DNA of 64,000 bases from Alphaproteobacteria bacterium (GCA_015062525.1 SUUM01000002.1:82964-146963), one strand, 5' to 3'. Counted from the first letter of the stretch, positions 45,362 to 64,000 are shown. Numbers and translations: made by a program. Notes: generated from the sequence alone by a model not told the origin.

Positions 45362-45363
45362 TC

Positions 45364-46920: not shown

Positions 46921-46956
46921 GTTTTATTATACCACATAACAACAAAAGGATTTTAT

Positions 46957-47835
46957 ATGCCCGCCAAGAATAAAAATGTCGCCCGTGAATGGTTTAACAC
47001 AATATTTTATGGGGCTCTGATTGCCATTGTTTTTCGCAGTTTTCTGCTGGAACCATTTAATATTCCATCCGGATCAATGATACCAACACTACACGTTGGC
47101 GATCACATATTTGTAGAAAAATGGGCATATGGCTATTCGCGTTATTCGTTCCCATTTGGTTCTTGGAAAATGTGGAATGGTCGTTTCTGGGCGACGGAAC
47201 CGGAAATAGGCGACGTTATTGTGTTCCGCAATCCAATCAATGAACACCAGGATTATGTTAAACGTTTAATTGGCAAACCGGGCGACAAGATTCAGATGAT
47301 AGACGGCCGCCTGCATATCAATGGCACGATGGTGCCGCGCGAAAATCCGCGTCCATACATTGTTGCGATGTTGCCTAAATCGATGCGTTCGGTCGGCTAT
47401 TATCGTGATAATATGTCGATTAAGGGCAACAAAATCTGGATTGATAATAAGCCCGCCGATTTTAATTACACAATTGAATACAAGCCTGATGATTTTTGCC
47501 ATATGTACAACGGTGCATGCGGTGTGTTCAGTGCGACGGAATATAGCGAAACATTACCAAACGGCGTATCGCACAGCATAATTGAAATGGCGGATAATGC
47601 GCACTTTGATAACACAGAATTATTTACTGTACCTGAAAATCATTATTTCTTTATGGGCGACAATCGCGACAACAGTGGCGACAGCCGTGGCGACGTTGGC
47701 TTTGTCCCACGCGATAATGTACTGGGTAATGTATGGTTTATATGGTATTCACATAATTACTATGCGCCAATGCTGGCCATTTGGAATTGGGGCAATAAAA
47801 TGCGTTGGGACAGATTTGGCATGGGGATAGATTAA
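46957..47835 (+). CDS. lepB: Signal peptidase I
   Basis: TM, then IPSGSMIPTL (Ser nucleophile) and later GDNRDNSGDSR (catalytic Lys region). Start placed after AAAAGGA; ORF open from 46915. Confidence 0.85.
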   Translation: MPAKNKNVAREWFNTIFYGALIAIVFRSFLLEPFNIPSGSMIPTLHVGDHIFVEKWAYGYSRYSFPFGSWKMWNGRFWATEPEIGDVIVFRNPINEHQDYVKRLIGKPGDKIQMIDGRLHINGTMVPRENPRPYIVAMLPKSMRSVGYYRDNMSIKGNKIWIDNKPADFNYTIEYKPDDFCHMYNGACGVFSATEYSETLPNGVSHSIIEMADNAHFDNTELFTVPENHYFFMGDNRDNSGDSRGDVGFVPRDNVLGNVWFIWYSHNYYAPMLAIWNWGNKMRWDRFGMGID

Positions 47836-47836
47836 A

Positions 47837-48484
47837 ATGAAAGAACTTGGATACGAATTTAAGAATAAATCATTACTGGACCTTGCGCTGACACAAAGCG
47901 GTGTAAATTCCATACATAACAACGAACGATTGGAATTTATTGGTGATCGTGTGCTGGGGTTATCTGTGGCAGATTTGTTAATGGATATGTACCCGTGCGA
48001 GACCGAGGGCGAACTTGCCCGTCGTCATGCCCAGTTGGTATCGACCGACACATTGGGACAAATGGCGCGTGAATTGGGTCTGCACCAGCGGGTGCGTCAT
48101 GGGCACATGACGGCGGGGCGCACAAAACACATGCTGGCAAACAGTATGGAGGCTATATTCGGCGCCATATATATTGACGGGGGATTCGAAGCCGCACGTG
48201 ATGTCATTGTTAAATTATGGCGCGATTTGGCGGCGCGTGATGTTGTCGCCCCAAAGGATCCAAAAACAGCACTACAAGAATTGGTCCAGCAAACCGCCAA
48301 GGGGCAATTGCCAGTATATGAATACGGCACCGGTCGTGGCGAATCCCATAATCCGGTATTTCATGTGCGTGTTACGGCGCTGGGGAAATTTGCAATCGCA
48401 TCTGGTGATTCTAAAAAGGCGGCCAGCACAGCCGCCGCGGCAGAATTACTGAAAGTGCTTGCAAATTCAGGGCAGGGGAATTAA
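47837..48484 (+). CDS. rnc: Ribonuclease III
   Basis: ERLEFIGDRVLGLSVADLLM signature and C-terminal dsRBD; lepB-rnc synteny. Confidence 0.9.
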   Translation: MKELGYEFKNKSLLDLALTQSGVNSIHNNERLEFIGDRVLGLSVADLLMDMYPCETEGELARRHAQLVSTDTLGQMARELGLHQRVRHGHMTAGRTKHMLANSMEAIFGAIYIDGGFEAARDVIVKLWRDLAARDVVAPKDPKTALQELVQQTAKGQLPVYEYGTGRGESHNPVFHVRVTALGKFAIASGDSKKAASTAAAAELLKVLANSGQGN

Positions 48485-48519
48485 AATCAACACAAACAAC
48501 AAACAAGTAAGGGTAAAAA

Positions 48520-48849
48520 ATGTTTTCAATTTTATTGGTTTTATTAATTATCGTCGCAGTTATGATGATTGGTCTAATTTTATTACAAAAGTCCGAAGGT
48601 TCGGGCATGTCTGGTTCATCTGCGGCATCTATGTTTGGTGGCGCTTTAACTGGTGCTGCGGCGGGTAATTTTTTGACGCGTGCAACGGCATGGTTGGCGA
48701 CAATTTTCTTTATTTTATGTGCTGCATTGGCTCTTGTGGCATCTAAATCCGATATGGCTGCGCCACAAAGTGATTTGCGCAATGAAATCATACACCAGGA
48801 AAGCGCACCAACCCCACAACAACCTGCGCCCGCCCCAATTACAGAATAA
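48520..48849 (+). CDS. secG: Preprotein translocase subunit SecG
   Basis: MFSILLVLLIIVAVMMIGLILLQKSEGSG...FGG; terminator at 48853-48876. Confidence 0.8.
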   Translation: MFSILLVLLIIVAVMMIGLILLQKSEGSGMSGSSAASMFGGALTGAAAGNFLTRATAWLATIFFILCAALALVASKSDMAAPQSDLRNEIIHQESAPTPQQPAPAPITE

Positions 48850-49061
48850 AACACCGCCCAATCGGGCGGTTGTTTTTTATTATTTTGAACTAATATGATT
48901 GTTTGGTATCGCGCATCCGATTCATTTGCCTAAACGCAAATTTGGGATATCTTTTGTTATATCGGGGTTCAAAACAACTGGTGGTTGTATGACTCGATAT
49001 TCTGTTGTGTTTGTGCCAAAATACACATCATACATATTTTTATTTACAAGGGAATAAAATA

Positions 49062-49307
49062 ATGAAATATCATCACGCTATTTGGCAATCGATATGCTAT
49101 ATTGCCCAAATTAATAATACAACATGTTCCGGACTTGCCAAAATGTGTGGTCTGGACGCGACAATTTTTAACCCCAGCAAGCGCAAAACAGTCTATGGTC
49201 AGCCCCGCTGGATAAGCACCGCCACCCTGGCCAAAGTCTTAACCACAACAAACATCAGCCCCATTCAATTCGCAGAAATTGTGCAAATGTTTCTGGATGA
49301 AAAATAG
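49062..49307 (+). CDS. Small HTH protein, paralog of 20432-20677
   Basis: CSGLAKMCGLDATIFNPSKRKTVYGQPRWISTATLAKVL aligns with SGLAKCSGLDPTTFNKSKRWSKEGQPRWPSTNSISKIL. Confidence 0.5.
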   Translation: MKYHHAIWQSICYIAQINNTTCSGLAKMCGLDATIFNPSKRKTVYGQPRWISTATLAKVLTTTNISPIQFAEIVQMFLDEK

Positions 49308-49464
49308 GAACGCTCACCTCAGAAATATTATTATGTCGCCGTTTAAAAGCCTGCATTATTCAGGCGTTTAGAACAACCCGCCAAGTAAATTTCTGAAAAA
49401 ACATAATTTAATGAAAAAAACACTTGAAATAGGATTTAATAAGGTATATTATTAGCAACGCTAT

Positions 49465-49502
49465 TCGGGCATAGTTCAGTCGGTAGAACAACGGACTGTT
49501 AA
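49465..49502 (+). pseudogene. Truncated tRNA-Asn, 5' half only (through the anticodon loop)
   Basis: 49444-49502 matches 58942-59000 (promoter region plus tRNA positions 1-38, 2 mismatches) and then diverges. A shared terminator-like hairpin cccagatttctggg+T-run lies at 49538-49556 and 59045-59066. Confidence 0.7.
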
Positions 49503-49625
49503 GCATGAGAGTAAGCCCAACAACAAATTCGAGTTTTGCCCAGATTTCTGGGTTTTTTTGTTGCTTTTTTTCAGTTCTGACGACTTATCACATTACGCTT
49601 AAAACCTGTTAAAACCTGTATGGAT

Positions 49626-49740
49626 ACCGTTTGAAAAACATACATTTTCATACCGCAAACCGATTTGAACCAAATTTTGTGTTCCACGATTTCAATACTG
49701 ATTTCTAGTTGATTTCAATGATGATTTCAACCAGAAAAAT
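49626..49740. repeat. Iteron-like short repeats (gatttcaa x4-5) plus a shared ttgaaaaacatacattt...accgcaaaccgatttgaa motif
   Basis: cgatttgaacc, cgatttcaatactgatttctagttgatttcaatgatgatttcaacc. The ~45-bp motif recurs at 59136-59180, and its first half also at 58818-58836. Confidence 0.55.
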
Positions 49741-49995
49741 TATACACACTTTTCCCCACCCCAGCACAACGGAATATCAATCTCTATCATTTTGCCCTCA
49801 CAATGCATAGAATAGCAAAAAAGGAGTCGCCAAACGGCTAACCCCTTTCCTATTCTGCTTTGGTTTTACACTACAATTATATGGATTTCAACAGGAAAGA
49901 TTTCATACTGCTGTAGCTATATGTGCATTTTCTTTATTGAATATACTTGCATATTGCTTTTTTGTGGATAAAATGTGTAAAAGTCGCTAAATAAA

Positions 49996-50595
49996 ATGTT
50001 AGATAAAGCCAAACAGATTGTCCAGTTTATGGATACTGTTGAAAAACTTTGTTATATAAAACGGTTTGCTACCTTAAAAGACAATAACAGGGAACGTGAT
50101 AGTGACCACATAATGAAATTGTCTTTCTTGGTTTTGTTGGTAGCCGATTTTCTTAGTGATAGATTAAATAAAACAAAACTTTTTGAACTTGCTCTTGTTC
50201 ATGATTTAGCTGAAGCGGATGCTGGTGATGTCTCTTATATAGAACAATTTGAGAATAATGAAGCCGTTGAACATAAAAGAGTTAAAGAATTAAATGTTAT
50301 TAAATCGTATCAAAAGCTTTTACCGTCACCACTTAATGATAAAATATATGAATTATTCATGGAGTATGAAACAGGCTGTACCATAGAATCCAAAATTATA
50401 CATAGTTTGGACAAGTTAGAGGGTGACTTGCAGTGTTGTAAGGACCTAAACCTATCGACTTATTGCAATCACAATGCTTTTATATCCCGTATATCCGCAC
50501 TCCAAAAGCATAAATATAGCACCATGACGAATGAGCCGATTATAGAAGCACTGGAAAGATTGATTCTTGAAAAGTCAAAGGATACTTCGAATTAG
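49996..50595 (+). CDS. HD-domain phosphohydrolase (YfbR-like)
   Basis: RDSDHIMKLSFLVLLVADFL ... LVHDLAEADAGDV (H...HD...D metal-ligand pattern). Confidence 0.6.
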   Translation: MLDKAKQIVQFMDTVEKLCYIKRFATLKDNNRERDSDHIMKLSFLVLLVADFLSDRLNKTKLFELALVHDLAEADAGDVSYIEQFENNEAVEHKRVKELNVIKSYQKLLPSPLNDKIYELFMEYETGCTIESKIIHSLDKLEGDLQCCKDLNLSTYCNHNAFISRISALQKHKYSTMTNEPIIEALERLILEKSKDTSN

Positions 50596-50618
50596 TAGAA
50601 ACGAGGAGCTAAACAAGT

Positions 50619-52229
50619 ATGACAAGGTTTACCAATAATTTGACAGGCGATATGGGTATTTCAAAGGAAAGCTATTCTAAATTATTTGGATACTTATCTG
50701 AAGTTTTTGCTCAAAAATTAAAAAAAACAATCCTAAATGAAATCAACAAATTAAGAGAGACAAACAAAGATTATAGACTTCTTGAGGTTTCTGATACACT
50801 TATTGTATCCATCTTTAAGTCCACAAAAAGAGAAGCTGTACGCTTGTGTGTTGGCTATCCTTTTCCGTTAGCTAGCAAGCAGTCTAGAATCTTCTTTTCA
50901 GGATATAAAGTTTCTGTTTTTATCCGTGATGAGCCCGTTAGAAAATTGCAACGGGAATATTTATTCAATTATTTGCAAAAAAACTATTCTGCAAAGCTGA
51001 ACATCATACATTCTACTGGTGATTTCAGAAAAAATTTATCTGGAACAAATAGAAAATTTAATAACAGGTGTTTTTATGTTGATTTGTATGACTTTATTGG
51101 AGACAGTATTATCGGCTTAAAATTTCTAGAGTCACTCAGGAAAACGCTTAGAATTCCAAAGACACGGTGCACTGTATTTTCTAAACATAGCAAACACATC
51201 CCGACTCAATACGCTATCTTTAACTCAACCAAATTTGCCAATTTAGTCAATAATTATGAGTATTCTACAATTATTGTTCCTGCATTGATTGACAATCAGT
51301 TTGATGCGTTTCTTAAAATTTTAAAATCAATTACACTCAAGAATTTCCGAATTATTGTTCCCAGCCGGAATCTATTTCTGACATTTTCTGAGAATAACAG
51401 TGAGATATTCTGGTGTAAATCACGAGACGTTCTTTTCAAGACAAATTCCATAGATAACTACATGGACATAGCATTAAATACTTTTACTGGAGAGCCTATT
51501 TCTGTGCTACCAAAAACAATAAAGGTTAGAAAAATTACAAAAAATGTATTTATAAATCCATTTAGCTCTTTAGAGGGGAAATCTATTTCTGTTGATGATT
51601 GTTCTAAAATTTGTGAACATTTACTATACAATGGCTTTAATGTCTTTGTTTCTGCAGGCTTTCACCAAGAGGAGTACATACAAAAATTAAAAGTTAAGAA
51701 TATAACTTTACTATATGATTCTGGATTTAAGGACCTTTCAGAAAAACTAACAGCACATAACATTGGATTGGTGATTAGCACAGATTCTGGTATTGCTCAT
51801 ATGACAGCGACCCTAGGCATTGCAACAATTGTGATTTATCATAGTTTCTTTTGGGACAGCTGTAGCAAACAATCAATTAGCAACGATGCCCTTGGCGGTT
51901 TTTGTCGAGCGCATTTACCAATGATACCAGTTGTAAATTCCGGGATACTGGATGCAGTAGAAAATATTTACCATCCTGCCATGACGTATAAACAGAAAAA
52001 ATGTATTAGGAGAACATTAAAACGAATGCAGGGAGCTTCAAATAAAACTGTCTTTTCTTTACATAAAGATCTTGTTTCTAAATTCCCGCATTTACATACG
52101 TTCTATTGCCCGGACATGTTACTTAAAAACGTTATAAACAATTCTAACAAAACAGACTCTTGGTCCTTGGTTAGTAATGTATGGCAAAATCTACCTGCTT
52201 ATAAAGTATCCAATTTTACTTTTGTTTAG
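50619..52229 (+). CDS. GT9-family (heptosyltransferase-like) glycosyltransferase with a ~150-aa N-terminal extension
   Basis: CFYVDLYDFIGDSIIGLKFLESLRK (GT9 N-terminal motif) and ISTDSGIAHMTATLGIATIVIY (GT9 C-terminal NDSGPMHLAAALG-like motif). Confidence 0.55.
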   Translation: MTRFTNNLTGDMGISKESYSKLFGYLSEVFAQKLKKTILNEINKLRETNKDYRLLEVSDTLIVSIFKSTKREAVRLCVGYPFPLASKQSRIFFSGYKVSVFIRDEPVRKLQREYLFNYLQKNYSAKLNIIHSTGDFRKNLSGTNRKFNNRCFYVDLYDFIGDSIIGLKFLESLRKTLRIPKTRCTVFSKHSKHIPTQYAIFNSTKFANLVNNYEYSTIIVPALIDNQFDAFLKILKSITLKNFRIIVPSRNLFLTFSENNSEIFWCKSRDVLFKTNSIDNYMDIALNTFTGEPISVLPKTIKVRKITKNVFINPFSSLEGKSISVDDCSKICEHLLYNGFNVFVSAGFHQEEYIQKLKVKNITLLYDSGFKDLSEKLTAHNIGLVISTDSGIAHMTATLGIATIVIYHSFFWDSCSKQSISNDALGGFCRAHLPMIPVVNSGILDAVENIYHPAMTYKQKKCIRRTLKRMQGASNKTVFSLHKDLVSKFPHLHTFYCPDMLLKNVINNSNKTDSWSLVSNVWQNLPAYKVSNFTFV

Positions 52230-53130
52230 ACTGTTTATGGCTTAACATTGGATAAAAACAGCACTCTGTACAGCAGGGACATTTCTCTTTTGTGCCAAGA
52301 TCCTTGATAACCATGGGCTTACTTATAACCCTACCACTATTTATACAAGGTGTCATTGTTCCATCTGGGCGCACGAATACAAATTCGCTACCTGCAAGGC
52401 AATTATCCATTATGTCTATCTGCCCAGTCTTAAAGAAATTGTGTTGAGCTGCAATAAACTTATCATCAGCCTTGAACTTACGAGAGAAGTCCATTATTGT
52501 TGTCACGTCTTCTTCTGGGATACACAAATTAACATCTGAGTTATGATAAAAGTCATCGTTATTATTAGCAAATCTAAAGGTATATGTGCATCCATATTTA
52601 CTTGCTAGTTCCGCAACATGTTCCAAGTTCGCAATGTTGCTATTGTGAGGTGTTATTGTTGTAGAAAACACAACGTTTATCTTCGGCAGCTGTTCTCTGA
52701 TTAGTTTCGCTGTTTGTATAACTGAATCATAGCAATTTATTCCACGTACTTTATGCATATCCTCTGGTCGCCCCTCTATTGATAGACATAAATATTCATT
52801 CTCTATCTTACCGTATACACTTTCCAGCAATGCCAAAACTCTTTTAGGATACGTTCCATTTGAGTTTACCCATAAATGCTTTAAGGCAGGCAGGTTGTCT
52901 ATTATAGACTTTACAACGTCTATTGCATCTTTTCTTAAAACGGGTTCGCCTCCTGATATACTCGCATCAATTATATCCTTGAAATAATCCTGTTTAAACA
53001 AATCGCCAAACTGTTCTGCATTTATTTCTGTTGGGGTAATCCCGGTCTTCCATATGTTGCACATAGTACAACGACTATTACATTTGTTGGTTATGGCAAT
53101 TGTTGCATATTTTACCATTTTACTTCCCAT
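52216..53130 (-). CDS. Radical SAM enzyme with C-terminal SPASM/twitch Cys cluster
   Basis: CNSRCTMCNIW (CxxxCxxC), SGGEP glycine-rich motif, and C-terminal C...C...CPCCTECC. Confidence 0.75.
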   Translation of the reverse strand: MGSKMVKYATIAITNKCNSRCTMCNIWKTGITPTEINAEQFGDLFKQDYFKDIIDASISGGEPVLRKDAIDVVKSIIDNLPALKHLWVNSNGTYPKRVLALLESVYGKIENEYLCLSIEGRPEDMHKVRGINCYDSVIQTAKLIREQLPKINVVFSTTITPHNSNIANLEHVAELASKYGCTYTFRFANNNDDFYHNSDVNLCIPEEDVTTIMDFSRKFKADDKFIAAQHNFFKTGQIDIMDNCLAGSEFVFVRPDGTMTPCINSGRVISKPMVIKDLGTKEKCPCCTECCFYPMLSHKQSKQK

Positions 53131-54181
53131 TTCTTTGTTTTTGCAATTGATGATCGTACATTAGTTTATTCAGTCTTTTTCTGAACTCTATTTCTGGTAG
53201 ATTGATATCCAGATTTATCTTGAAGTTTTCTTTTTCTTCAAGTTCGGATATTTCCTGAGAGTGATAATTTCTTTCTACTTCCTTGCTTATTACATCGTAT
53301 GTATCCTGTTCAGAATGAATAAATTGAATTCCTGTTGACAGCCAATATTCATATGAAATTTTAACAAGCAACCTCAGATCTACCTTATTCTGATTCAATA
53401 GCGGCATTAGTTTCTTTAGCAGCATACGCATTTTGGAGCCTTGCCCCTTATACTTTGGAACAATACCAGAAGCCGCCATCAATACTGACGTATGAACACA
53501 ATCCAATAGTGCGGTCATATTATCTTTATCTAATTTACTATCTGTATAAAATTCTTTGAATACGGGCAAATACAAGCCATTTTTATTAAGTAACCAATTC
53601 AGACGTTCTAACCCCATACCAACCTCAATAATATTATAAGTTTTGGACATGTATGGGAAATCATGCATAAATATTACTTCAGAAATTTGATCTTCGCCCA
53701 GATATAAGGCTAAAAAGGATTCACTGAATTTTTTATTACCCCATTGCGCTTGGTATGTAGAAGTTCTGACATCGACCCTGTCTGGGGTAGCACCATAATT
53801 AACCATCGTTTTTATCAAGTTATTTGCGGACGAGATAAATTGTTCTTCCGTTCCATTGATTGTAACAGCAGCAAAATTTATAAATGAAGTACCAGTCCCC
53901 TGTTTCACATCATTAACATATTGCATCCTGATAACTGGTTGATACACCATGAAATTAGGGACCGTTGATAGGTCCACTCCCTTTGACTCCATACTTTCTA
54001 AACGCTGAATTGCAGAAGTTGTAAACAGTGTTGTTTCCCTTTTATCATCTCTAACAACACTTTCTGGTTTCATTAGATTGTATTCTGGGAAGAATTTGTG
54101 GGGTTCTCCCCCCTTGGCCGAAATGATCGTATTTGGCCATGAAACACTTTTTTCAATCTTTTGCAAATCCAGGTTTATCAT
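53120..54181 (-). CDS. Class II aminoacyl-tRNA-synthetase catalytic-core-like protein (AlaRS/GlyQ-type)
   Basis: IIEVGMGLERLNWLL matches the (D/E)(T/V)GMGLERL element of AlaRS/GlyQ. TLFTTSAIQ resembles the AlaRS FTNAGMNQF region and EVIFMHDF resembles E(I/V)WNLVFMQ. 353 aa, with no tRNA-binding or editing domains. Confidence 0.45.
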   Translation of the reverse strand: MINLDLQKIEKSVSWPNTIISAKGGEPHKFFPEYNLMKPESVVRDDKRETTLFTTSAIQRLESMESKGVDLSTVPNFMVYQPVIRMQYVNDVKQGTGTSFINFAAVTINGTEEQFISSANNLIKTMVNYGATPDRVDVRTSTYQAQWGNKKFSESFLALYLGEDQISEVIFMHDFPYMSKTYNIIEVGMGLERLNWLLNKNGLYLPVFKEFYTDSKLDKDNMTALLDCVHTSVLMAASGIVPKYKGQGSKMRMLLKKLMPLLNQNKVDLRLLVKISYEYWLSTGIQFIHSEQDTYDVISKEVERNYHSQEISELEEKENFKINLDINLPEIEFRKRLNKLMYDHQLQKQRNGK

Positions 54182-55500
54182 TTCATGTGTTCCTTAAAGC
54201 TTGTATATTTTTGCATTTTTATTCGTTCTCTAAGGTCATCAAACGTGTTCTCTATACGAACTTTATTTCTTGTATGCGGAATTATAACATCTTGCCCACC
54301 CATGTAAGGTTGCAGGGCTTTTGGTATTCTTATGTACCCATCTTTTGTCTGATGATTTTCCATCAGTGCAATTACAGCACGTTCAGTTATTGCGGTAGAT
54401 GATATTGTATGTGCAAATGACCTCGTGCCTTTATCCTTTATTTTAATGTTAGCCCGACGAGCTTGGAAATCTGACAAATTTGAATTAGAGTGTGTTTCTT
54501 TATATGTTTGTTGAGAAGGGAACCATGCCTCAGTATCATACTTTTTATATCCAGGTGCCGCTATATCGCCAACACAAACGTTAACCACTCTAAACGGAAT
54601 TTCCAAGGATTTCATTATATCTTCTATGTTTCGTTGACAGAACAACTGCATCATTTCAGAGTCTTCTGGACGACAAAATATAATCTGTTCTTGTTTGTAA
54701 AATTGATGAACTCTGAATATCCCTCGATTAGCTTTTCCCGCAGCCCCAGATTCACTCCTAAAACAAGGAGTCTGTGCAGTATATAACAATGGCAACTTGT
54801 CTGCATCTAGAGTTTCGCCTGAATGATAGGGTACAATTGTTTGTTCAGATGTGCCTATCATGGTCAAATCCCAATCTTTTACATTATACTCTTGGTCCAT
54901 AATAAACGGGTGATACCCTGTAATATATAAGGCCTGTTCTTTTGTTAATAATGGCGTTCCCATTATTTCAAAACCTCGTTTTTCTAACAGATCTTCTGTG
55001 AAAGCAAAGACAGCATTCCTTAATCTAAGGCCATCATTTAGCCAGTAGAAAAATCCTCTGCCAGATATTTTTGTGCCTTTTTCAATATCTAAAATACCTA
55101 ATCTTGTCCCCAATTCATCATGCGACAACACCTTAAATCCTTTTGGAGTTGTATCACCGAATTTATATATTTCTACATTTTCAGTATCATCTTGACCAAC
55201 GGGTACATCTTCTGAGAGGTCGTTTGGGATCATTGCTGACAGAGCTCTCAACTCCTGACTTTTTTGAGCTATTTTGGTTTCTAACTGGGCCAATTTTGGT
55301 TTTTGTTGTTTTGCGGCCTCAATGTTTCTTTCAGCAGCATATTTATTTGCTAACGCACGCTCTTGTTCCACACAAGCTAACAGCTGACGATATTCTTCAT
55401 CTGCTTTGAGCAATGCATCAACATCTAATTTTACTTTTCGTAAAGCAACAAGTTTTCTAAAATAATCAGGATTTTGTCTAATAGCTTTCATGTCTAACAT
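54178..55500 (-). CDS. serS: Seryl-tRNA synthetase (full-length paralog or acquired copy)
   Basis: N-terminal MLDMKAIRQNPDYFRKLVALRKVKLDVDALLKADEEYRQLL (coiled-coil arm), TPCFRSESGAAGKANRGIFRVHQFYKQEQIIF (motif 2/3 region), AT-rich codon usage. ORF open to 55539. Confidence 0.8.
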   Translation of the reverse strand: MLDMKAIRQNPDYFRKLVALRKVKLDVDALLKADEEYRQLLACVEQERALANKYAAERNIEAAKQQKPKLAQLETKIAQKSQELRALSAMIPNDLSEDVPVGQDDTENVEIYKFGDTTPKGFKVLSHDELGTRLGILDIEKGTKISGRGFFYWLNDGLRLRNAVFAFTEDLLEKRGFEIMGTPLLTKEQALYITGYHPFIMDQEYNVKDWDLTMIGTSEQTIVPYHSGETLDADKLPLLYTAQTPCFRSESGAAGKANRGIFRVHQFYKQEQIIFCRPEDSEMMQLFCQRNIEDIMKSLEIPFRVVNVCVGDIAAPGYKKYDTEAWFPSQQTYKETHSNSNLSDFQARRANIKIKDKGTRSFAHTISSTAITERAVIALMENHQTKDGYIRIPKALQPYMGGQDVIIPHTRNKVRIENTFDDLRERIKMQKYTSFKEHMK

Positions 55501-55601
55501 GTATAAACCCCTTGTTAATTGTGGATATTTGTAGCACAAAATTGACAGATGTCAATATATTTGTTTGACAACACGCCTTTTTTTGTATAAATTTATCTCA
55601 A

Positions 55602-56543
55602 ATGGAACAGAAAAATACATTTTTTGCAAATCTGAAAACAAAAATTAAGCTTGCATCTTGGTGGCGACATTTTGTTCACCCACACCAACTATGGACTGCC
55701 ATAAAGTTCGCAGGACACTTTTATACAAAATTTTCTCAGGAAGAAAAAACACAATTTCAAGATGAACTGTCTGTTGTTTTAATTATTAAGGATGAGGCAA
55801 GCTACTTAGCTGAATGGATTGAATATCATAAAATAGTTGGGGTTACTAAGTTTTATATATATGACAATGAGTCTACAGATAATATAAAAGAAATTCTTAA
55901 AAATTACAGGGAGGACGTTGTCTATAAATATTGGCCTGGTAGAGGCCAGCAAATTTCTGCCTATAACGATGCTCTTAAGAATTATAAATTAAAAACTAAA
56001 TGGATGGCATTCATTGATACTGACGAATTCTTGGTACCTGTCCAACATAAAACTATTATTGATGTCATAAATGATATAAAACCAAAATATGGCCTGGGGG
56101 CGAGTTGGGTTAATTATGGTGACAGCGGACATGCGAAGCGAACCCCGGGGTTAACCATAGAACGGTTTACAAAAAGAGCACCATTGGAACATCCTAAAAA
56201 TCTCATGGTGAAATCGATTATCAACCCAAGGGCTGCTTTTATGTTTGCTGTCCATAATGGTTGTTTTCTTGGTTTCAGAAGCGGAATTGATGAAAATGGT
56301 AGAAAAATCGCAGGTTTTAATCTAAAACCCAGCATAAAGAAAATTCGTGTTAATCACTATTTTACAAAAAGTTATGAGGAATTTTTGAATAAAACAAAAC
56401 GTGGCGATGCAGAAACGCCAGACGGTCGTTTCAATAAATCCTTTGATGAGGGGAACACAAATGACATATATGATGATATTATGTTAAAATATGTTCCCGA
56501 AATCAAGGCTAGGCTAGAGAAGAAGGGATTGCTTACTCGATAA
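55602..56543 (+). CDS. GT92/GT2-like glycosyltransferase
   Basis: VVLIIKDEASYLAEWIEYHKIVGVTKFYIYDNESTDN signature. Confidence 0.5.
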   Translation: MEQKNTFFANLKTKIKLASWWRHFVHPHQLWTAIKFAGHFYTKFSQEEKTQFQDELSVVLIIKDEASYLAEWIEYHKIVGVTKFYIYDNESTDNIKEILKNYREDVVYKYWPGRGQQISAYNDALKNYKLKTKWMAFIDTDEFLVPVQHKTIIDVINDIKPKYGLGASWVNYGDSGHAKRTPGLTIERFTKRAPLEHPKNLMVKSIINPRAAFMFAVHNGCFLGFRSGIDENGRKIAGFNLKPSIKKIRVNHYFTKSYEEFLNKTKRGDAETPDGRFNKSFDEGNTNDIYDDIMLKYVPEIKARLEKKGLLTR

Positions 56544-57174
56544 TCTCTACTCCCTCACCAACAGTTTCTAATACATTTCCATCTACATCGAATATCAAGC
56601 CACAATTTTCTGGTATACAATAAACCTTAAACTTGTTTTCTTTTGCCACTTTTTTGACATGCTCAGAAGTTTCAGGCCAATGACACGCAACACATGCACC
56701 TTGTAATAAATTTAGCCCATCTTCTTGTTTATAATCGCCACGTTCATCCATTGCAGCAGCGGTCTTTATTGAACGCCCCATAATGATTGCACCGGCACTG
56801 CCACCATAAACTGGCTTACCCGATTTCATAAACATTATTAACTTTTTATCAAGTCCGTACTTTAATACATTATCTAGAAGTTTAAATGTATTTCCACCGC
56901 CAATATATACAGCATCATAATCATCTAAAATAATATTTTTTCCTGTCTGATCGTTTAGCATTTCTATAGCGATCGTATCACTGTATAACCTAACAACACT
57001 TGTAAACCATTCAAGCCCACCAGTATAATTTCCAGAATCCATCGCCAATGGCACATATAGGATTCTTCCTGTTGCTGGTAACGTATTGAAAAATATCGTA
57101 TCCAAGCGAGCACTATCCTCTGCACCACCGCCACCACCTAGATACAAAGTTGCTTTTTTATTTTCTATCGACAT
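56533..57174 (-). CDS. Peptidase S51 (dipeptidase E / cyanophycinase-like)
   Basis: LYLGGGGG..., VYGGSAGAIIMG (Ser nucleophile GxSAG), later His/Glu. Confidence 0.65.
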   Translation of the reverse strand: MSIENKKATLYLGGGGGAEDSARLDTIFFNTLPATGRILYVPLAMDSGNYTGGLEWFTSVVRLYSDTIAIEMLNDQTGKNIILDDYDAVYIGGGNTFKLLDNVLKYGLDKKLIMFMKSGKPVYGGSAGAIIMGRSIKTAAAMDERGDYKQEDGLNLLQGACVACHWPETSEHVKKVAKENKFKVYCIPENCGLIFDVDGNVLETVGEGVEIIE

Positions 57175-57799
57175 TGTTTTCTCCTTTGTTTTGGTATAAT
57201 TGTGGATTCAAATCTGGATCATTATACATCTTAAATTGATAATACGATGCAATTCTTTTTTTCCCAGACAGATATTCTTTTATTAAGTGTTTTACTGCTT
57301 TGACGAGAGATTTTTTTTGTTCCAACAAAACATCCAGCTTTTCAGAAGCTTGTTTCACTTTTTCAAAGCTGGTGTCGGTTCTTTGTGTTTGTTCGTTCAT
57401 GTGAAAAATTTTAAGGGATAAAATTGATAATCTATCTATCGTCATACCAAGTGTTTCTGTGTTTTGTATATCTTCACATACATCGGGTAATTCTGGGAGT
57501 AATAATTTAGTTATTGCGGTATCTATATTTTCATAGAAATTAGTTCGCATTTGATTAAGCTTATCAATTTTATATTTACAATCTGCAATTACAACAGGAG
57601 GAACATCTTTACGTCTGGCTATGTCTTCTGTATGCCATAACTTAAAGTTCATCAAATGATTTGCTTTAACATAGTTATATAATGTTTCTATCGGAGAACT
57701 GGATACCTCAAACTCCTCAGCCAAATCTTCCTCGTTTACATGCCATAATTCTGTATATTTTTCTTGGGCTTTAGCGATAGTATCTATTATTTCATCCAT
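57158..57799 (-). CDS. Hypothetical protein
   Basis: 213-aa ORF overlapping the S51 gene start; no motif recognised. Confidence 0.4.
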   Translation of the reverse strand: MDEIIDTIAKAQEKYTELWHVNEEDLAEEFEVSSSPIETLYNYVKANHLMNFKLWHTEDIARRKDVPPVVIADCKYKIDKLNQMRTNFYENIDTAITKLLLPELPDVCEDIQNTETLGMTIDRLSILSLKIFHMNEQTQRTDTSFEKVKQASEKLDVLLEQKKSLVKAVKHLIKEYLSGKKRIASYYQFKMYNDPDLNPQLYQNKGENNVDRK

Positions 57800-58135
57800 T
57801 ATATACCTCTCTTATAATTTCATTAACTAGCATATTTTTCTTCATTAGACAATATTTTTATCATTATATGATTTACATTCTGAATATATTTCGCCTTTGG
57901 CCAATCCAGCCAATGATATACGTGTGGTTGAAACAACGTTCTTTAGATTTGCAACCTCATCCAATGTAAAGTATTGCATATCTGCACACTTGTCCCCCTC
58001 GCAGTTGCGAATTGTGCCGGTATATTTTGATACCTCGAAAAAGAAATCAAAAGATTCTGTTCGACTGGCCAGATTGCTGGTGACATGAACACATTTGATA
58101 TCGCAAGTGGCTATTTAGCAAATTATAATAGATTA

Positions 58136-58729
58136 TTATTTTGTGCCATTCTCTGCTTCAATCAACTCATCAATGGCCATTAGCTTATCCTCCTGTTTAG
58201 ACAGACTTTTTTTCACAATAGATAAATCCTGAGTTTTGACATATTTTGCAACATCTTTTGGAATATATTTTAGTTTTTGACCTTCTATTTCTAGCGCTTT
58301 GCGCTGTTTTGTTAACGCCATAACTGTCTGTTTCCTTAAATCACGCAAAAACGCTATTCTTTCCGTTTTTTTTAGATGTAAATATTTTTCATTATTTACT
58401 ATTTCTATTTTAAATGGTTCTAGTTTAGATTGTTTAGCTTTTGCTTTCACCGCTCTTATAGTCCAAATTGGTAAAAGGATCAAGAGCCAATACATCAGTA
58501 AAACTATCGCGGTCGCAGCGATACCAATTCCCACTCTATAAATAGCTTTTTCTCGAACCGGGGCAGGAACAAAACAACATACCAACACCATAAGCAACAA
58601 CCAAAAACTAAATTGCATAATTTTTTTATTTGTCTTCGAGGTTTCGCCATATATTTTATATAAACACCAAAACAAAACAACAAAAGCTACCAAACCTATA
58701 AATTTAAATATGGTTACTAAAACATCCAT
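58136..58729 (-). CDS. Membrane protein with a C-terminal coiled coil, hypothetical
   Basis: Three to four TM helices followed by a Lys/Glu-rich helical tail. Confidence 0.45.
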   Translation of the reverse strand: MDVLVTIFKFIGLVAFVVLFWCLYKIYGETSKTNKKIMQFSFWLLLMVLVCCFVPAPVREKAIYRVGIGIAATAIVLLMYWLLILLPIWTIRAVKAKAKQSKLEPFKIEIVNNEKYLHLKKTERIAFLRDLRKQTVMALTKQRKALEIEGQKLKYIPKDVAKYVKTQDLSIVKKSLSKQEDKLMAIDELIEAENGTK

Positions 58730-58962
58730 GGAAAAACCTCTTATTTTTATTCCTATTCTAGCAACAACATTTGAAAATGTAAATTGAATATATTAGCGAT
58801 TAAATTATTGTTAGCACGGTCGTTTGAAAAACATACATTTACATACACTCTGGGACAAAAGTCGCAGGTTTCTGCGGTTTTGCGGGGTGCATAACACACG
58901 ACAAAATTCTTCTAAAAACGCTTGACTTCTGCATTTTTTTAGTATATTATATGCAACGCTAT

Positions 58963-59038
58963 TCGGGCATAGTTCAGTCGGTAGAACAACGGACTGTTAA
59001 TCCGTATGTCGTTGGTTCGAGTCCAACTGCCCGAGCCA
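58963..59038 (+). tRNA. tRNA-Asn (anticodon GUU)
   Basis: Acceptor tcgggca/tgcccga, D-stem gttc/gaac, anticodon loop cuGUUaa, T-arm gttgg ttcgagt ccaac, CCA encoded; 76 nt. Confidence 0.85.
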
Positions 59039-59279
59039 GATTTAGCCCAGATTTCTGGGCTTTTTTCTTTGTTTCCAGATTTCTAACTTGTTATCATTTT
59101 CCTCATTAAATGATTCTTGTTGACCGTATAGTCATTCAAAAAACATACATTTTTACACCGCAAACCGATTTGAAATGGTTTATTGATATACGTTATAAGA
59201 GTTAATATCAACCCTTATTTTAATGCCAGTTTTCTCTGTTTGTCCTTAATAAACTTTGCCCTAGACACTCGAAACCTTT

Positions 59280-60746
59280 TTATGAGATATAGCCCTGCAC
59301 CACCTCTAGCAACCGAACCATTGCGATAGTGTCCTGGCCACAGTATTCATGCAAATTCTTCATCATTTCTTCGGTTTGTGCTGGCGTTTGTTTACCAACC
59401 ATAAAGTCCATAAATTGATCACTGGCCTCGGTTCCGTTGTGTATTCCCAAATTCTCATACGACATTTCCGGTATGAATGCTGGCAATGTTTGTTTAATCG
59501 ATGCGCTGCCGTTCTGACATGGGCGATACAATCCACGTTCACGAAATGGCATCAGCAAGTCCAACATGCGGTCATTTATCGCCAGCAGTTGATCTGAATA
59601 TTCTGGAAAGTCACGGGCCATTTCTGTATTGCGACCTTGTTCAAATCCCTGGTTATAGACAATGACCGATCCGGTGGTACCGATAGTTTCTATCAGTTTC
59701 TTTATCAAACCCGGTCTTGGATCTGTGCTGGATTCATCGTGCAGATATTCGTAGTGTTCCAGTTCGCCCCCTGGGGTCCGTTGCACATGCAGTGAAAACT
59801 GGAAACAAATCTGCTGATATGGCCTTGAGTTATCAAACATCGGTACCGCTGGCATGATGGACTCGTAGTCCAGGAAATACAGTGGCCACTGCAATTGGTC
59901 TGTAAAGTTGTGCAGAATGTCCGGATTGACGACTTCGGTTCCGGTCAGGTATGCCTCTATGTCGCCTGGGTGCATTTGCTTGATACGTTCCTGTTCCGGT
60001 ATGCCGGTCAGGTCCGCACCGTATGCTGCATACATTTCATCTGCCAGCGCACCCTTAAATGCATTGAATACTGAATAGTCCGGTATATTCCGCCAGCAAT
60101 GGTGTTTGTAAGGACAATCATAGAACTTATTGCACTTGCCCTTGGATATTGCAATCCCCAGTTCTGGGCCGTCTAACACCGCACGAATGCGTTTCACATC
60201 TGCTGCGACTTGTTCCATTGGCTGCAGCTCTTCGTTTACGTTATGCAGCACAAACAGTTCCTGGATATCCAGCGCACCGTGTCTGACGTATTCTGGGTTC
60301 AGGGTAAGTATGTAGCAATCACGTATTTTGACACCACATTGTGTGAATACATATTTCTGGAATGACGCATCAAGATAGTGGTATTCGTGGGGGCTTGTGG
60401 TTGACTTAACCTCTATGATGTCCCATGTGCCGTCATTATTATTACGAAGAATGTCCACCGCACAGTATTCGCCTGTCTTGGTGGACAATGTTGCCTCATA
60501 GATATATGGGTCATCAGCCTTTATGGCATCTTGGGTCTGCCATGCTGCCTCATATTCCCATGGTTTAGCTGTGATGTATCTGCCACCTGGGAACTTATCT
60601 ATGGCCAATCTTCCGATTTCGTGTCCACGTTCCAGGATTGCCATGTTCATTTCAGTCTGGATATCCTTGCGCAGTTTCTTGAACCATATTGCGTTTGGAC
60701 ATTTTACCCCTAATACATAATCTGATTTTGATATTTTGAACATCAC
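59280..60746 (-). CDS. PD-(D/E)XK-fold nuclease-like protein (Cas4/RecB-like N-terminus, DUF2779-like)
   Basis: N-terminal ...SDYVLGVKCPNAIWF... then CAVDILRNNNDGTWDIIEVKSTTS (D...D/E.K core). 488 aa; 4-nt overlap with the downstream gene. Confidence 0.5.
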   Translation of the reverse strand: MMFKISKSDYVLGVKCPNAIWFKKLRKDIQTEMNMAILERGHEIGRLAIDKFPGGRYITAKPWEYEAAWQTQDAIKADDPYIYEATLSTKTGEYCAVDILRNNNDGTWDIIEVKSTTSPHEYHYLDASFQKYVFTQCGVKIRDCYILTLNPEYVRHGALDIQELFVLHNVNEELQPMEQVAADVKRIRAVLDGPELGIAISKGKCNKFYDCPYKHHCWRNIPDYSVFNAFKGALADEMYAAYGADLTGIPEQERIKQMHPGDIEAYLTGTEVVNPDILHNFTDQLQWPLYFLDYESIMPAVPMFDNSRPYQQICFQFSLHVQRTPGGELEHYEYLHDESSTDPRPGLIKKLIETIGTTGSVIVYNQGFEQGRNTEMARDFPEYSDQLLAINDRMLDLLMPFRERGLYRPCQNGSASIKQTLPAFIPEMSYENLGIHNGTEASDQFMDFMVGKQTPAQTEEMMKNLHEYCGQDTIAMVRLLEVVQGYIS

Positions 60747-61522
60747 GAAACCTTTATTCTTCCTTTATAATAGTACCAAAGCAAATGATCAAAACCATTT
60801 TTGCTTATCTTGTTACCTGCTTTTTTTATAATTTTCTCTATTGTTTCCGAATATACCGCATAGTCTTCCAGTTCTTGCTTTTTTACTTCAATTCCATAGT
60901 AATCAATATACAGTGGTAATGCGTTTTTTAATATTGAGTCGTATATTGAGTAATTGTCTTGCTCTTTCTTGCCCTCGAACAGATAAAAGCATGCATAGTG
61001 ACAGAACTTGCTTGCAAACGACTTGTTTTCCCTGGGCCTTATGGTTGCACTAGTTTTCCTTGCAATTATTTCTACCAGTTTATATTTCGTGCCATGTGGG
61101 TCTTGTAGATAATGTAGTAGTTTTTCTAGTGGAATCTTGCATATTCTTTCTGTTATTTCATCACGTCCAATACCGTCTGCGTTCAGATGTGTGGAATTAT
61201 CTCGATCTACAGCTATCACAGCATTTGCTATGATGTTCTTGTATGTTTTTCTGTCCGTCATGTTTTTTTTAATGTAATCCCTTAACTGACACATCCAATA
61301 TGCTGTTGAACCACCTTTGCCATTCTTGTCCGGCCCATACTCTTTGTTGCCGGAGTTTAAGTATGCAGCATCATTTTGAATCATAGCCTCAACCCTGGCC
61401 ACATTGTCTTGGGTTATTTCTACGAGTCCCTTAGTTTCTATGGTCGTGAGCATATATTTTTTTGCTATTTCTAGTTCATTTCCGATCTTATTCATTGATT
61501 GCCTTTCCATTGATTGTGCCAA
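60743..61522 (-). CDS. Hypothetical protein co-transcribed with the PD-(D/E)XK gene
   Basis: 259-aa ORF; no motif recognised. Confidence 0.4.
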   Translation of the reverse strand: MAQSMERQSMNKIGNELEIAKKYMLTTIETKGLVEITQDNVARVEAMIQNDAAYLNSGNKEYGPDKNGKGGSTAYWMCQLRDYIKKNMTDRKTYKNIIANAVIAVDRDNSTHLNADGIGRDEITERICKIPLEKLLHYLQDPHGTKYKLVEIIARKTSATIRPRENKSFASKFCHYACFYLFEGKKEQDNYSIYDSILKNALPLYIDYYGIEVKKQELEDYAVYSETIEKIIKKAGNKISKNGFDHLLWYYYKGRIKVS

Positions 61523-61659
61523 TTATAATTCTTCATAGGAATAAAAGCAATCTGTATCAAGATTGTTTTTTGCTAATTTTTCTTATAAAAGTCTGGAATT
61601 TTTTCCATTCAATGGTATAGTAAAAAGGATATTTAATTCTAGACATAAAGGGATATGAT

Positions 61660-64000
61660 ATGGCCGACACTGATTTCCGATTTTTCACGAATACTGATAG
61701 GGATTCTCTGCTTTCTCGATTTCAAACGACATTAAAAGACGCACGGTATTTTGATGTCCTGGTCGGGTATTTGCGTGCCAGTGGTTTTAACAATCTGTAC
61801 AAGGCATTTACTAAAATTGAAAAAATGAGAGTTTTGGTTGGTCTAAGTGCCGACCGTCAGGTTGTTTCCTTAGTTGAAGAATCTAATCCCCAGGGGCAAC
61901 TAAGGTTGTCACGCCATGATCTGAAGCAGAATTGTGCGGAACATGTCAAAAAGGAATTTGAGAATTGCGATGATTCCCCCGACACCGAAGACTCTGTTGC
62001 CTCTTTGCGACAGATGATTAAGGATGGTAAGCTTGAAATTCGTGCGTTCCCAGAACGGAACATTCATGCCAAGGTATATATCACCCGTTTCCCTGATGAC
62101 GATCGTGATTTTGGTAGTGTTATTACTGGATCTAGCAATTTTAGTGAAAACGGCTTAAAGGCAAACCATGAATTCAATGTTGAATTAAAAGATACACCGG
62201 ATGTAAAATTTGCCCTGGAACGCTTTGAGCAACTTTGGGAGCAAAGTGACGATATTACCAGCGAATACATCGATACAATCGATACGCAGACATGGCTAAA
62301 CCCCAATATTACACCTTACGAAATCTATCTGAAGTTCCTGTACGAATATTTCAAGGAGGAAATCAATTTCGATAAGGAAGGTGGCTTTATGTTGCCAGAT
62401 GGCTTTATGGAATTGGAATACCAGAAACAAGCTGTTACAGCGGCTAAAAAGATCCTGAATGCATATAACGGTGTATTCCTTGCTGACGTTGTTGGTTTAG
62501 GAAAAACATATATTACTGCATTATTGCTGCAACAAATGCCTGCCGAACGTAAACTGATTATTTGTCCACCTGTCTTGATGGATGGTTGGAAGGCTGCTAT
62601 TCGGGATTTTCGTGTTGGCGGTGCGGTCGTGGAATCTTTGGGCAAACTGGACAAAATTGAAAAACAGGCTGAAAACTACGATATTATCGTGATTGACGAA
62701 GCCCACCGTTTCCGCAATGAAGTTACATTTGGCTTTGAAAAGCTACAGCAAATCTGTCAGGGCAAAAAGGTTGTTCTGGTTTCTGCTACGCCAATCAACA
62801 ATAAATTTGATGATTTACTGTCCCTGATCAAGTTGTTTCAGCCAGTGAAACGCAGCACCATCCCTGGTGTAGTCAACTTGGAAGAATTCTTTAAGAGACA
62901 GTCTAGAAAACTAAATGGTCTGCAAAAAGGCACGCCTGAATATCGTGCTGCTGTTTCTGCTGCCTCTGCACAAATCAGAAACAAGGTTCTATCTCATCTT
63001 ATGGTTCGCCGCACTAGAACTGAGATCAAAAAATACTTTGATAAAGACATTAAAAATCAGGGACTTCATTTCCCAGAAGCGGCCGATCCACGTCGTATTA
63101 TTTACCAGTTTGATGAGCAGATCGACAATGTCTTTAATCAGACAATCGATTTGTTAAAGGAATTTTCATATTCCCGTTATACGCCACTGCTTTTCTTAAA
63201 GGAAAAACTTAGTGATTTTGCCGCACAACGTCAAAAGAATATTGGTGGCTTTATGAAGGGCATCCTTGTAAAACGTCTGGAAAGCAGTTTCTATGCATTT
63301 AAGCAGTCAACTGACAGGTTTGTCTTATCTTATGAACGCTTTATTGACATGTTCCAAAAAGGAACTGTGTACATCAGCAACAAGGTGAATGTTTATGACC
63401 TGCTGGACAACGACCAGGAAGACAAGCTCTTGAAGCTGGTTGAGGATGAAAAGGCGGAGATGTATTCTTCCGATCAGTTTAATGATGATTTTCTACCGGC
63501 TCTGCGAAGTGATCTGACCATACTGAGACATATCCAAAAGTTATGGAAAGAGATTGATCAAGACCCAAAAGCGGATGAGTTTGTCCGCATGTTGAAAAAG
63601 GACAAGGACCTTGCCGGTAAGAAAGTTATCGTCTTTACGGAATCCAAGGAAACATCCGACATTGTGTACAAACGCCTGGCCAAGGAATTCAAGGGCCGTG
63701 TTATTCGCTATTCTAGTGAGGGTGGCGACTTTGATGGCCGAACGTTATCTACCGAAGATGCACGCCAGCGCATCAATGAAAACTTTGATCCACGTGAAAA
63801 AACACAGTCGGACGACATTGATATTTTGATTACCACTGACGTGTTGGCTGAAGGTGTGAATCTGCATCGTTCAAATATCTTGGTCAATTATGATCTGCCT
63901 TGGAATCCAACCAGAGTTTTACAGCGTGTCGGTCGTGTAAATCGTGTTGGTTCATCGTTTGCTGAATACTTTGTCTATAACTGTTTCCCAACATCGGTAT
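61660..64000 (+). CDS. PLD-family (HKD) nuclease domain fused to an SNF2-family helicase; 3' end beyond the window
   Basis: HKD motif NIHAKVYITRF...GSSNFSENGL; helicase motifs DVVGLGKTYI (I), DEAHRFRN (II), SATPINN (III), QRVGRVNRVGS (VI). No stop codon before 64000. It is absent from the ORF track only because it is incomplete. Confidence 0.75.
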   Translation, partial: MADTDFRFFTNTDRDSLLSRFQTTLKDARYFDVLVGYLRASGFNNLYKAFTKIEKMRVLVGLSADRQVVSLVEESNPQGQLRLSRHDLKQNCAEHVKKEFENCDDSPDTEDSVASLRQMIKDGKLEIRAFPERNIHAKVYITRFPDDDRDFGSVITGSSNFSENGLKANHEFNVELKDTPDVKFALERFEQLWEQSDDITSEYIDTIDTQTWLNPNITPYEIYLKFLYEYFKEEINFDKEGGFMLPDGFMELEYQKQAVTAAKKILNAYNGVFLADVVGLGKTYITALLLQQMPAERKLIICPPVLMDGWKAAIRDFRVGGAVVESLGKLDKIEKQAENYDIIVIDEAHRFRNEVTFGFEKLQQICQGKKVVLVSATPINNKFDDLLSLIKLFQPVKRSTIPGVVNLEEFFKRQSRKLNGLQKGTPEYRAAVSAASAQIRNKVLSHLMVRRTRTEIKKYFDKDIKNQGLHFPEAADPRRIIYQFDEQIDNVFNQTIDLLKEFSYSRYTPLLFLKEKLSDFAAQRQKNIGGFMKGILVKRLESSFYAFKQSTDRFVLSYERFIDMFQKGTVYISNKVNVYDLLDNDQEDKLLKLVEDEKAEMYSSDQFNDDFLPALRSDLTILRHIQKLWKEIDQDPKADEFVRMLKKDKDLAGKKVIVFTESKETSDIVYKRLAKEFKGRVIRYSSEGGDFDGRTLSTEDARQRINENFDPREKTQSDDIDILITTDVLAEGVNLHRSNILVNYDLPWNPTRVLQRVGRVNRVGSSFAEYFVYNCFPTSV

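Follow-up and report, generated by a model that had tools for sequence, protein, structure and literature searches.

An AT-rich island between a truncated and an intact tRNA-Asn gene in an uncultured gut alphaproteobacterium: the probable remnant of a tRNA-integrating temperate phage

Why should a bacterial chromosome carry an intact asparagine tRNA gene and, 9.5 kb upstream of it, the promoter and first half of the same gene, with AT-rich DNA and no integrase between the two? The arrangement lies in a stretch of 64,000 nucleotides (nt) from an Alphaproteobacteria bacterium (GCA_015062525.1 SUUM01000002.1:82964-146963), hereafter the window, in which coordinates are counted. An earlier reading, made from the sequence alone, had interpreted it as an island that entered horizontally at tRNA-Asn and left the pseudo-tRNA as a scar. 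This interpretation holds: an integrase-bearing version is found in other strains, and the pseudo-tRNA is best read as the attL junction of an integrated element. We conclude that the island is likely the stranded remnant of a temperate phage that integrated by tyrosine-integrase recombination at the anticodon loop of tRNA-Asn.

The right-hand gene is a functional tRNA-Asn(GUU), on which ARAGORN, Rfam and the sequence-only reading agree. Upstream, 49416-49502 repeats 58914-59000 with 84% identity over 87 nt (repeat finder). Within this repeat, leader and tRNA nt 1-38 (49453-49502, tRNA nt 1 at 49465) are exactly identical, and the identity stops at the last base of the anticodon loop, CTGTTAA, where the sequence-only reading had seen the left copy end. 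The intact gene and the nt 1-38 fragment, both on the + strand, thus bracket the island with the 5′ fragment upstream, a configuration known from Islander-type tRNA islands. The DNA after the left copy had been called unrelated. It is not entirely so: a global alignment finds the whole left locus (49416-49669) homologous to 58914-59174, and the 31 nt past the loop (49503-49533) keep leftover matches to the tRNA 3′ half (GyATG, nGAGT, CCAAC, and CGAG). Two shared features reported earlier are also present. The terminator GCCCAGATTTCTGGG is identical at 49538-49552 and 59045-59059 (0.07 chance matches expected). A motif of about 45 bp, here termed D, agrees at 34 of 36 positions between 49634-49669 and 59139-59174; it contains ACCGCAAACCGATTTGAA, which occurs only in the left and right motif copies (0.18 expected), and its first half, TTGAAAAACATACATTT, recurs exactly at 58824-58840, upstream of the intact gene.

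The left copy retains a good promoter match and a terminator. It was rejected as a functional tRNA or member of a known RNA family, having no tRNA match in Rfam, even at E ≤ 1, and no cloverleaf fold. The earlier description of a duplicated tRNA-Asn locus is correct in that two copies exist, but these are probably two integration junctions and not a simple duplication. The same gene order is found on 18 independent contigs, so the arrangement is not an assembly artefact.

The DNA between the two copies differs in composition from its surroundings. Its GC content (49503-58962) is 0.347, against 0.446 in the syntenic core at 42012-48882, and GC at third codon positions (GC3) is 0.26-0.34 in island genes, against 0.44-0.48 in comM, lepB, and rnc, in line with the AT-richness first noticed in the sequence. 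The region is also absent from the related genomes L007-L012 and from the same-species contigs L186, L187, and L189 (L numbers designate the sequences compared). As had been noted, no integrase gene lies within 49.5-59.0 kb, nor are there phage packaging or structural genes in the window's island.

An integrase does accompany the same DNA elsewhere. In L178-L183, the window's gene cluster (49770-58102) is found inside an integrase-bearing prophage. One side of this cargo carries a NUDIX gene, an acetyltransferase, small open reading frames (ORFs), a tyrosine integrase of 403 amino acids (aa), and an HTH_17 excisionase; the opposite side carries a 226-aa gene (o226), a UmuC-like polymerase, DUF6291, and DUF6362. 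The L178 integrase has the domains Arm-DNA-bind_3 (PF13356) and Phage_integrase. Its gene forms a xis-int pair about 180 nt upstream of an intact tRNA-Asn, divergent from the tRNA, and the right flank consists of the window's 250-aa and Snf2 genes, 97.6% identical. In strain L178, DUF2779 is mostly deleted; one sample with L178-type strains is ERZ27317369. These strains, with the same cargo plus an integrase, bear out the suspicion that the integrase of the island was lost. The sole tyrosine recombinase in the window, at the far left end, was considered as the missing enzyme and rejected, as it shows no similarity to the L178 integrase.

A more divergent pair, L192/L193, indicates what kind of element this is. 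Its integrase is 80% identical to that of L178, and its backbone, 73-89% identical, runs into a ParB-methylase and the large subunit of a GpA-type terminase, which is why we regard the element as a temperate phage. The block of about 9.9 kb that holds the cargo is absent from L192/L193. Since the two share the backbone without this block, the AT-rich cluster appears to be a cargo insertion near the integrase end of the prophage. Because the packaging genes sit in these relatives and not in the window, the window itself can hold a prophage remnant only.

Both ends of a related element are visible in L191, a contig from a viral collection that represents a short, deleted relative in another host (Snf2 there has only about 72% identity to the Snf2 of the window). 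The order in L191, given in the direction of the window, is fabI (divergent), host promoter, tRNA-Asn nt 1-38, left arm, truncated integrase, xis, promoter, and intact tRNA-Asn. Over 322 nt, its left arm agrees with that of the window at 94.1% identity, from the degenerate 31 nt through terminator and motif to a set of four GATTTCAA repeats. L011 has the same divergent fabI/tRNA-Asn pair, which is thus the host arrangement, and this means that the relic carries the host's own promoter and 5′ half. By this comparison, the left arm appears to be element DNA, and the working tRNA appears to lie at the integrase end with a promoter supplied by the element. The xis-int pair is placed on the 5′ side of tRNA-Asn, and divergent from it, in five independent integrase-bearing locus types (L178, L191, L192/193, L194/195, and L200). 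Given that an integrase is present in the homologous L178, L192, L194, and L200, we regard the window copy as a degraded derivative. L199, considered as another relative, is an unrelated phage with a tRNA array.

The edges of the cargo point the same way. Homology to the L191 left arm ends at 49730, and homology to L178 starts at 49770, 20 nt inside o226. At the other edge, homology to L178 ends inside the NUDIX gene, of which codons 67-155 are kept, 97% identical, with stops upstream. Because homology breaks inside the phage genes o226 and NUDIX, both cargo boundaries are deletion or recombination endpoints, and the island is therefore most likely a degraded, integrase-less prophage remnant. 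L178 lacks the adjoining stretch, 58115-58962, whose promoter and upstream module are similar to two other right arms, those of phage L200 (integrase 52% identical) and of the L186 island.

Several junctions converge on one position in the tRNA. Divergence starts right after CTGTTAA in the window, in L191, and in L087, a strain about 97% identical that has a different sequence after the loop; the first base of the L200 contig, from one more related phage, falls exactly at this breakpoint. Reciprocal fragments, in which foreign sequence is followed by CTGTTAA and the tRNA 3′ half, are found in L158 and L194/195. The L087 tail past the breakpoint was uninformative, as it matches only 88 nt upstream of a Type II methylase gene in L005. 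The anticodon loop is a recognised sublocation for tRNA-targeting integrases (PMC4383910). On the strength of the breakpoint at CTGTTAA and of xis-int on the 5′ side in five locus types, a tyrosine-recombinase exchange with the 7-nt anticodon loop as overlap would fit.

We propose the following history. Members of this phage family would sit 5′ of the working tRNA gene, with an attachment region built like a complete tRNA-Asn locus, from promoter through 5′ half and loop to a decayed 3′ half, terminator, and repeats. With a crossover in the loop, attP would read xis, promoter, tRNA nt 1-38, CTGTTAA, and then GCATGAGAG of the left arm. On integration, the host promoter with tRNA nt 1-38 would end up at the distal end of the element, where the phage left arm continues from it; the pseudo-tRNA (49424-49730) would be this junction, attL. 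The working tRNA would then adjoin xis-int, under a phage-supplied promoter. The AT-rich 8.3-kb cluster would be cargo inserted near the integrase end. Deletions would have removed the phage body from the left arm to codon 7 of o226, as well as the stretch from NUDIX codon 66 through int-xis. The cargo would thereby have come to lie against the right arm of another prophage, related to the first and now the source of the tRNA promoter. In the simplest reading, two related prophages stood in tandem and were fused by a deletion that cost the integrase, the excisionase, and the inter-phage junction. Such a remnant would be unable to excise by itself.

A number of observations weigh against this history. 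The left end of the full-length L178-type prophage is not seen, as the contigs end there, and neither a circular attP junction nor a clean empty attB was found in the sequences compared. L189, which has a single intact tRNA-Asn, was tried as an empty site and rejected, because the DNA to the right of this gene includes remnants of a related element. For the fusion of two prophages, the evidence is the likeness of the right arm to L200 and L186 (68% mean column identity). In L194/195, a displaced host 3′ half lies 290 nt downstream of the tRNA. Although the flanks on the right differ, the terminators that follow the tRNA in the window, L178/L191/L192, and L194 also look homologous, with stem changes that compensate each other. 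Their stems are GCCCAG/CTGGGC in the window (59044-59061), CCGCAG/CTGCGG in L178 (1478-1500) and L192, and CCCCGG/CGGGG in L194 (~9470-9495), with a conserved T-rich loop.

These last points bear on a different history, in which the phage brings a complete replacement tRNA-Asn (promoter, both halves, and terminator) and destroys the host gene; 58963-59038 would then be wholly element-borne, and the host 3′ half would be deleted or lie beyond the sequence seen. In L194/195, an intact tRNA stands by xis-int, and the foreign sequence downstream leads into CTGTTAA and the 3′ half of another allele. Beside the integrase, moreover, 3′ half and terminator are nearly identical in L178, L191, and L192 despite their different right flanks, the L178/L192 and L194 alleles carry matched compensatory changes across both halves of the anticodon stem, and the window's terminator past the tRNA resembles that of the phage left arm. 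However, a search for a displaced 3′ half came up empty in the window and in L178 and L192, as well as in L005 up to ~70.7 kb (window coordinates) and over 4.8 kb to the right in L191. An attP core more than 350 nt past the tRNA would also make the xis-side arm unusually long, and a loop crossover in a tRNA-like attP predicts just such a left arm, with a decayed 3′ half. We consider a complete replacement unlikely, but worth keeping in view; the 3′ half and terminator of the working tRNA could be of either host or element origin.

Entry without any integrase acting on this island, by RecA-dependent (Campbell-type) homologous recombination within the block of 50-60 identical nt, appears improbable. 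The block, from -22 to +38, is long enough for such recombination, and the L186 island, which lacks an integrase, has a different left breakpoint (tRNA nt 5, flanked by CGCTATTCGGG). Yet related elements encode integrase and excisionase beside the site, and several unrelated arm types break precisely where the 7-nt loop ends on its 3′ side, which fits the overlap of a tyrosine recombinase. Had the tRNA-Asn locus instead been duplicated in tandem long ago, with later decay of one copy and an unrelated insertion of foreign DNA between the two, and with no site-specific recombination at the tRNA, this would explain why the whole locus of about 260 bp is alike (~80% outside the exact block) and not just a core. 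It would not explain why the post-loop sequence is 94% identical in L191, after a different host promoter and in a different species (SNF2 ~72%), why three junction types share the same breakpoint nucleotide, or why cargo and integrase stand together in L178; we give it very little credence. Integration of a temperate phage by exchange in the loop, followed by loss of its integrase, is thus the explanation that we favour.

For such a phage, the D motif may plausibly be an arm-type site, as the sequence-only reading had suggested. It is found in the left arm, with a half-motif in the window's right arm, and the L178-type integrase has the arm-binding domain PF13356; D is absent from the right arm beside the integrase in L178 and L191. 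It was rejected as a genome-wide repeat, with only three sites near tRNA-Asn and none in L178, and in the viral collection it is found on the L191 contig only. The left arm also holds a separate array of four GATTTCAA repeats that is conserved in L191. At 49599-49730, TTAAAACCTG occurs twice and the 12-nt repeat GATTTCAATGAT 3.7 times, in a single orientation, at a spacing of about one helical turn, and conserved in L191. Int, Xis, or a host factor could bind to these left-arm repeats, and the GATTTCAATGAT array is a further candidate for an arm-type site.

The site varies between strains. A genome scan with Rnc places the closest genomes among uncultured gut Alphaproteobacteria from yak cecum and roe deer rectum, one of them labelled Candidatus Enterousia. 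Synteny with these genomes (L007-L012) covers only 42.0-48.9 kb of the window and ends near 48882. L007 and L008 have ligA directly after secG and no tRNA-Asn there, while L011 and L012 are rearranged, with ligA on the other side. The island-less arrangement of these closest species was therefore rejected as a presence/absence comparison; since the genomes are so rearranged, absence of the island from other species says little. A SecG scan of a metagenome collection did not recover the window strain, and only L087 was informative.

Contigs with an identical 81-aa ORF beside the site show several states: the window type (18 contigs), L186/L187, and L189. In L186/L187, a 4.4-kb block (truncated epimerase, hydrolases, and His_Phos) lies between a 5-nt relic and an intact tRNA with its own promoter. 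In L189, the tRNA is followed by APH, PLD, L178-type remnants (an acetyltransferase, 89% identical, and 67 nt from the 5′ region of the integrase), and a CBASS system. Several contents at one site make it a strain-variable hotspot. The suggestion that the island is fixed thus holds within the identical-Rnc sub-lineage, where all 18 contigs carry it, but not within the species. The earlier reading would have failed if all relatives had carried ordinary core genes between the same two tRNA-Asn copies; L186/L187, L189, and L087 show no such genes there and have other contents.

Other cargo is seen at this hotspot or with the same integrase family: CBASS (CD-NTase and Cap15) plus CoiA in L189 (2158-7627), an epimerase/abhydrolase/HAD/His_Phos block in L186 (10414-14812), and a 2714-aa two-partner-secretion protein with ShlB in L194 (12511-21224). 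L087 also has a 1.36-kb insertion (452-1815) between secG and the 81-aa ORF, encoding a glycosyltransferase-like protein.

Table 1. Features of the tRNA-Asn island and its surroundings, in window coordinates
Feature	Position	Strand	Basis or remark
Pre-island region	48883-49423	+	Non-syntenic with related species; 81-aa ORF and sequence upstream of relic promoter
81-aa ORF	49062-49307	+	No family match; conserved in strains L087, L186, L189
Putative attL relic	49424-49502	+	Promoter-like TTGAAA-17-TATTAT (49424-49452), leader, tRNA-Asn nt 1-38 (49465-49502); ends in loop CTGTTAA
Putative phage left attachment arm	49503-49730	+	Matches L191 8413-8095 (94.1% over 322 nt)
Left arm: decayed tRNA 3′-half-like stretch	49503-49533	+	Global alignment
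Left arm: terminator hairpin	49538-49553 + T run	+	
Left arm: TTAAAACCTG, twice	49599-49619	+	
Left arm: D motif	49628-49669	+	
Left arm: repeat GATTTCAATGAT, 3.7 times	49688-49730	+	
Deletion junction	49731-49790		~40 nt unmatched, then first 7 codons of phage gene o226 (49770-49790, minus)
AT-rich cargo cassette	49770-58102	both	98.96% over 8333 nt to L178-L183
HD_3 phosphohydrolase	49996-50595	+	Domain search
GT9-like 536-aa protein	50619-52229	+	Domain search
Radical SAM protein	52216-53130	-	Domain search
353-aa protein, like a catalytic fragment of alanyl-tRNA synthetase (AlaRS)	53120-54181	-	Predicted fold
Seryl-tRNA synthetase (SerRS) paralogue	54178-55539	-	Domain search
GT92/GT2 glycosyltransferase	55602-56543	+	Domain search
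Peptidase S51	56533-57174	-	Domain search
DUF4254	57158-57799	-	Domain search
NUDIX pseudogene	57848-58114	-	C-terminal 89 codons (aa 67-155), no start codon, stops upstream; 97% to L178 NUDIX
Right arm, putative second related phage subtype	58115-58962		Absent from L178; promoter and upstream module homologous to right arms of L200 and L186 island
197-aa membrane protein	58136-58729	-	In right arm
Half-motif D′	58821-58846		In right arm
Promoter of intact tRNA, TTGACT-17-TATTAT	58922-58950		In right arm
Functional tRNA-Asn(GUU)	58963-59038	+	ARAGORN (GTT), Rfam tRNA 74.5 bits, cloverleaf fold
3′ region of tRNA	59039-59279	+	Terminator 59044-59061, D motif copy 59133-59174; 71% over 143 nt to left arm
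Defence island, 3′ side of tRNA	59280-64000	both	Continues past window (L005 1-10000)
DUF2779/Cas4-like	59280-60743	-	
250-aa protein	60743-61495	-	
HKD+Snf2 (1066 aa)	from 61660	+	
Type IIG restriction-modification gene (892 aa), 199-aa resolvase, Type II methyltransferase, PLD/DrmC-like protein	beyond window		In L005
517-aa tyrosine recombinase	14-1567		In low-GC tract; unrelated to the tRNA-Asn phage integrase
GIY-YIG protein	2381-3370		In 14-7000 tract
T5orf172 protein	3324-3953		In 14-7000 tract
Rep-like protein	5058-5579		In 14-7000 tract

Elsewhere in the window, a 7-kb tract of low GC (14-7000; 0.28-0.33) looks like a separate mobile element. A low-GC glycosyltransferase block at 36000-42003 (GT4/GT1, a 655-aa HAD-like protein, and GT2) stands beside rpmG and tRNA-Leu(TAG) (41919-42003); synteny with L007/L008 breaks exactly at this block, where those genomes have tRNA-Ser(TGA) instead.

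The cargo cassette is rare. Its 353-aa protein has only seven homologue clusters among 5.8 billion proteins, has no Pfam match above threshold, and has no match to solved structures by sequence. By predicted structure (pLDDT 80), it is a match to the catalytic fragment of AlaRS (Foldseek E ~1e-10, TM-score ~0.6, 13-16% identity). The adjacent SerRS paralogue is full-length, scores above the TIGR00414 cut-off, and is translationally coupled to the 353-aa gene. We considered it unlikely to be the only SerRS of the species; it is probably an extra copy, because the cassette is missing at the tRNA-Asn site from other strains of the species (L186, L187, and L189).

The contexts of the 353-aa homologues define a core cassette of DUF4254, S51 peptidase, 353-aa protein, radical SAM, GT9-like protein, and HD hydrolase. 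It occurs in at least four further places (L167-L170, L171-L173 near lgt, L174-L177, and the L178-type element), and its GC is below that of its flanks in every context. In L167-L170 (7247-14285), from another rumen alphaproteobacterium, it lies directly after tRNA-Ser(GGA), between rpoZ and a PBP5 gene, and no flanking repeats were found there. L174-L177 carry the core cassette, without SerRS and GT92, in an unrelated prophage with a large serine recombinase, DUF2924, terminase, and SIR2; L176 adjoins tRNA-Ser(TGA). Where the cassette occurs elsewhere (L167, L171, L174, and L176), the direct repeats around it that resemble att sites are short and at chance level only.

We put forward, as speculation that is more likely wrong than right, that the cargo is a lysogenic-conversion cassette built around aminoacyl-tRNA synthetase-like enzymes (the SerRS paralogue and the divergent AlaRS fragment, with radical SAM, two glycosyltransferases, HD, and S51). 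It could aminoacylate a surface glycan or make a compound of the aminoacyl-nucleotide type, in a phage family that would also take over the promoter of the host tRNA-Asn. Under the same speculation, related prophages might yet mobilise the integrase-less island in trans, since both of its junctions are left.

Set beside known systems, this is an island of an ordinary kind in an uncommon orientation. It shares with Islander-type tRNA islands the intact tRNA with a cognate fragment in direct orientation, the crossover in the anticodon loop, the foreign composition, and, in intact relatives, an arm-binding integrase and an excisionase beside the attachment site. In contrast to most of those islands, the displaced fragment here is the 5′ end with its promoter, a minority arrangement found in 159 of 3919 islands (Hudson, Lau and Williams 2015, PMC4383910). 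A further difference is the attachment region, in which the other half of the tRNA survives in decayed form together with its terminator. The Islander integrase filter would reject the window copy, since its integrase is lost.

The cargo is more unusual. Temperate phages carry lysogenic-conversion genes (morons) near int-att; the gtr genes with which P22 and the Shigella Sf phages modify O antigen are an example. The present cargo is likewise a low-GC, glycosyltransferase-rich block near the integrase end of a prophage, absent from sister phages and outlasting prophage decay. Unlike gtrABC, it includes a full SerRS paralogue, the AlaRS-fragment-like protein, radical SAM, HD, S51, and DUF4254. 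Asparagine tDNAs of Enterobacteriaceae, for example Klebsiella pneumoniae, hold tandem arrays or hotspots of islands, which one account describes as integrating at these tDNAs (PMC4891358). There too, tRNA-Asn is a hotspot with contents that vary by strain; the hosts belong to a different phylum-level lineage, and the likeness drawn here is one of description.

These results map a tRNA-Asn integration hotspot and its phage family in poorly known, uncultured gut Alphaproteobacteria (Candidatus Enterousia-like) of ruminants and other animals. They provide a worked example of the minority arrangement in which a tRNA gene has its 5′ end and promoter exchanged for those of an element. For annotation, they indicate that an AT-rich block without an integrase can be traced to a specific prophage by strain comparison. 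They also place a rare cassette on mobile elements, among them at least two unrelated types of prophage, which makes it a reasonable target for functional study.

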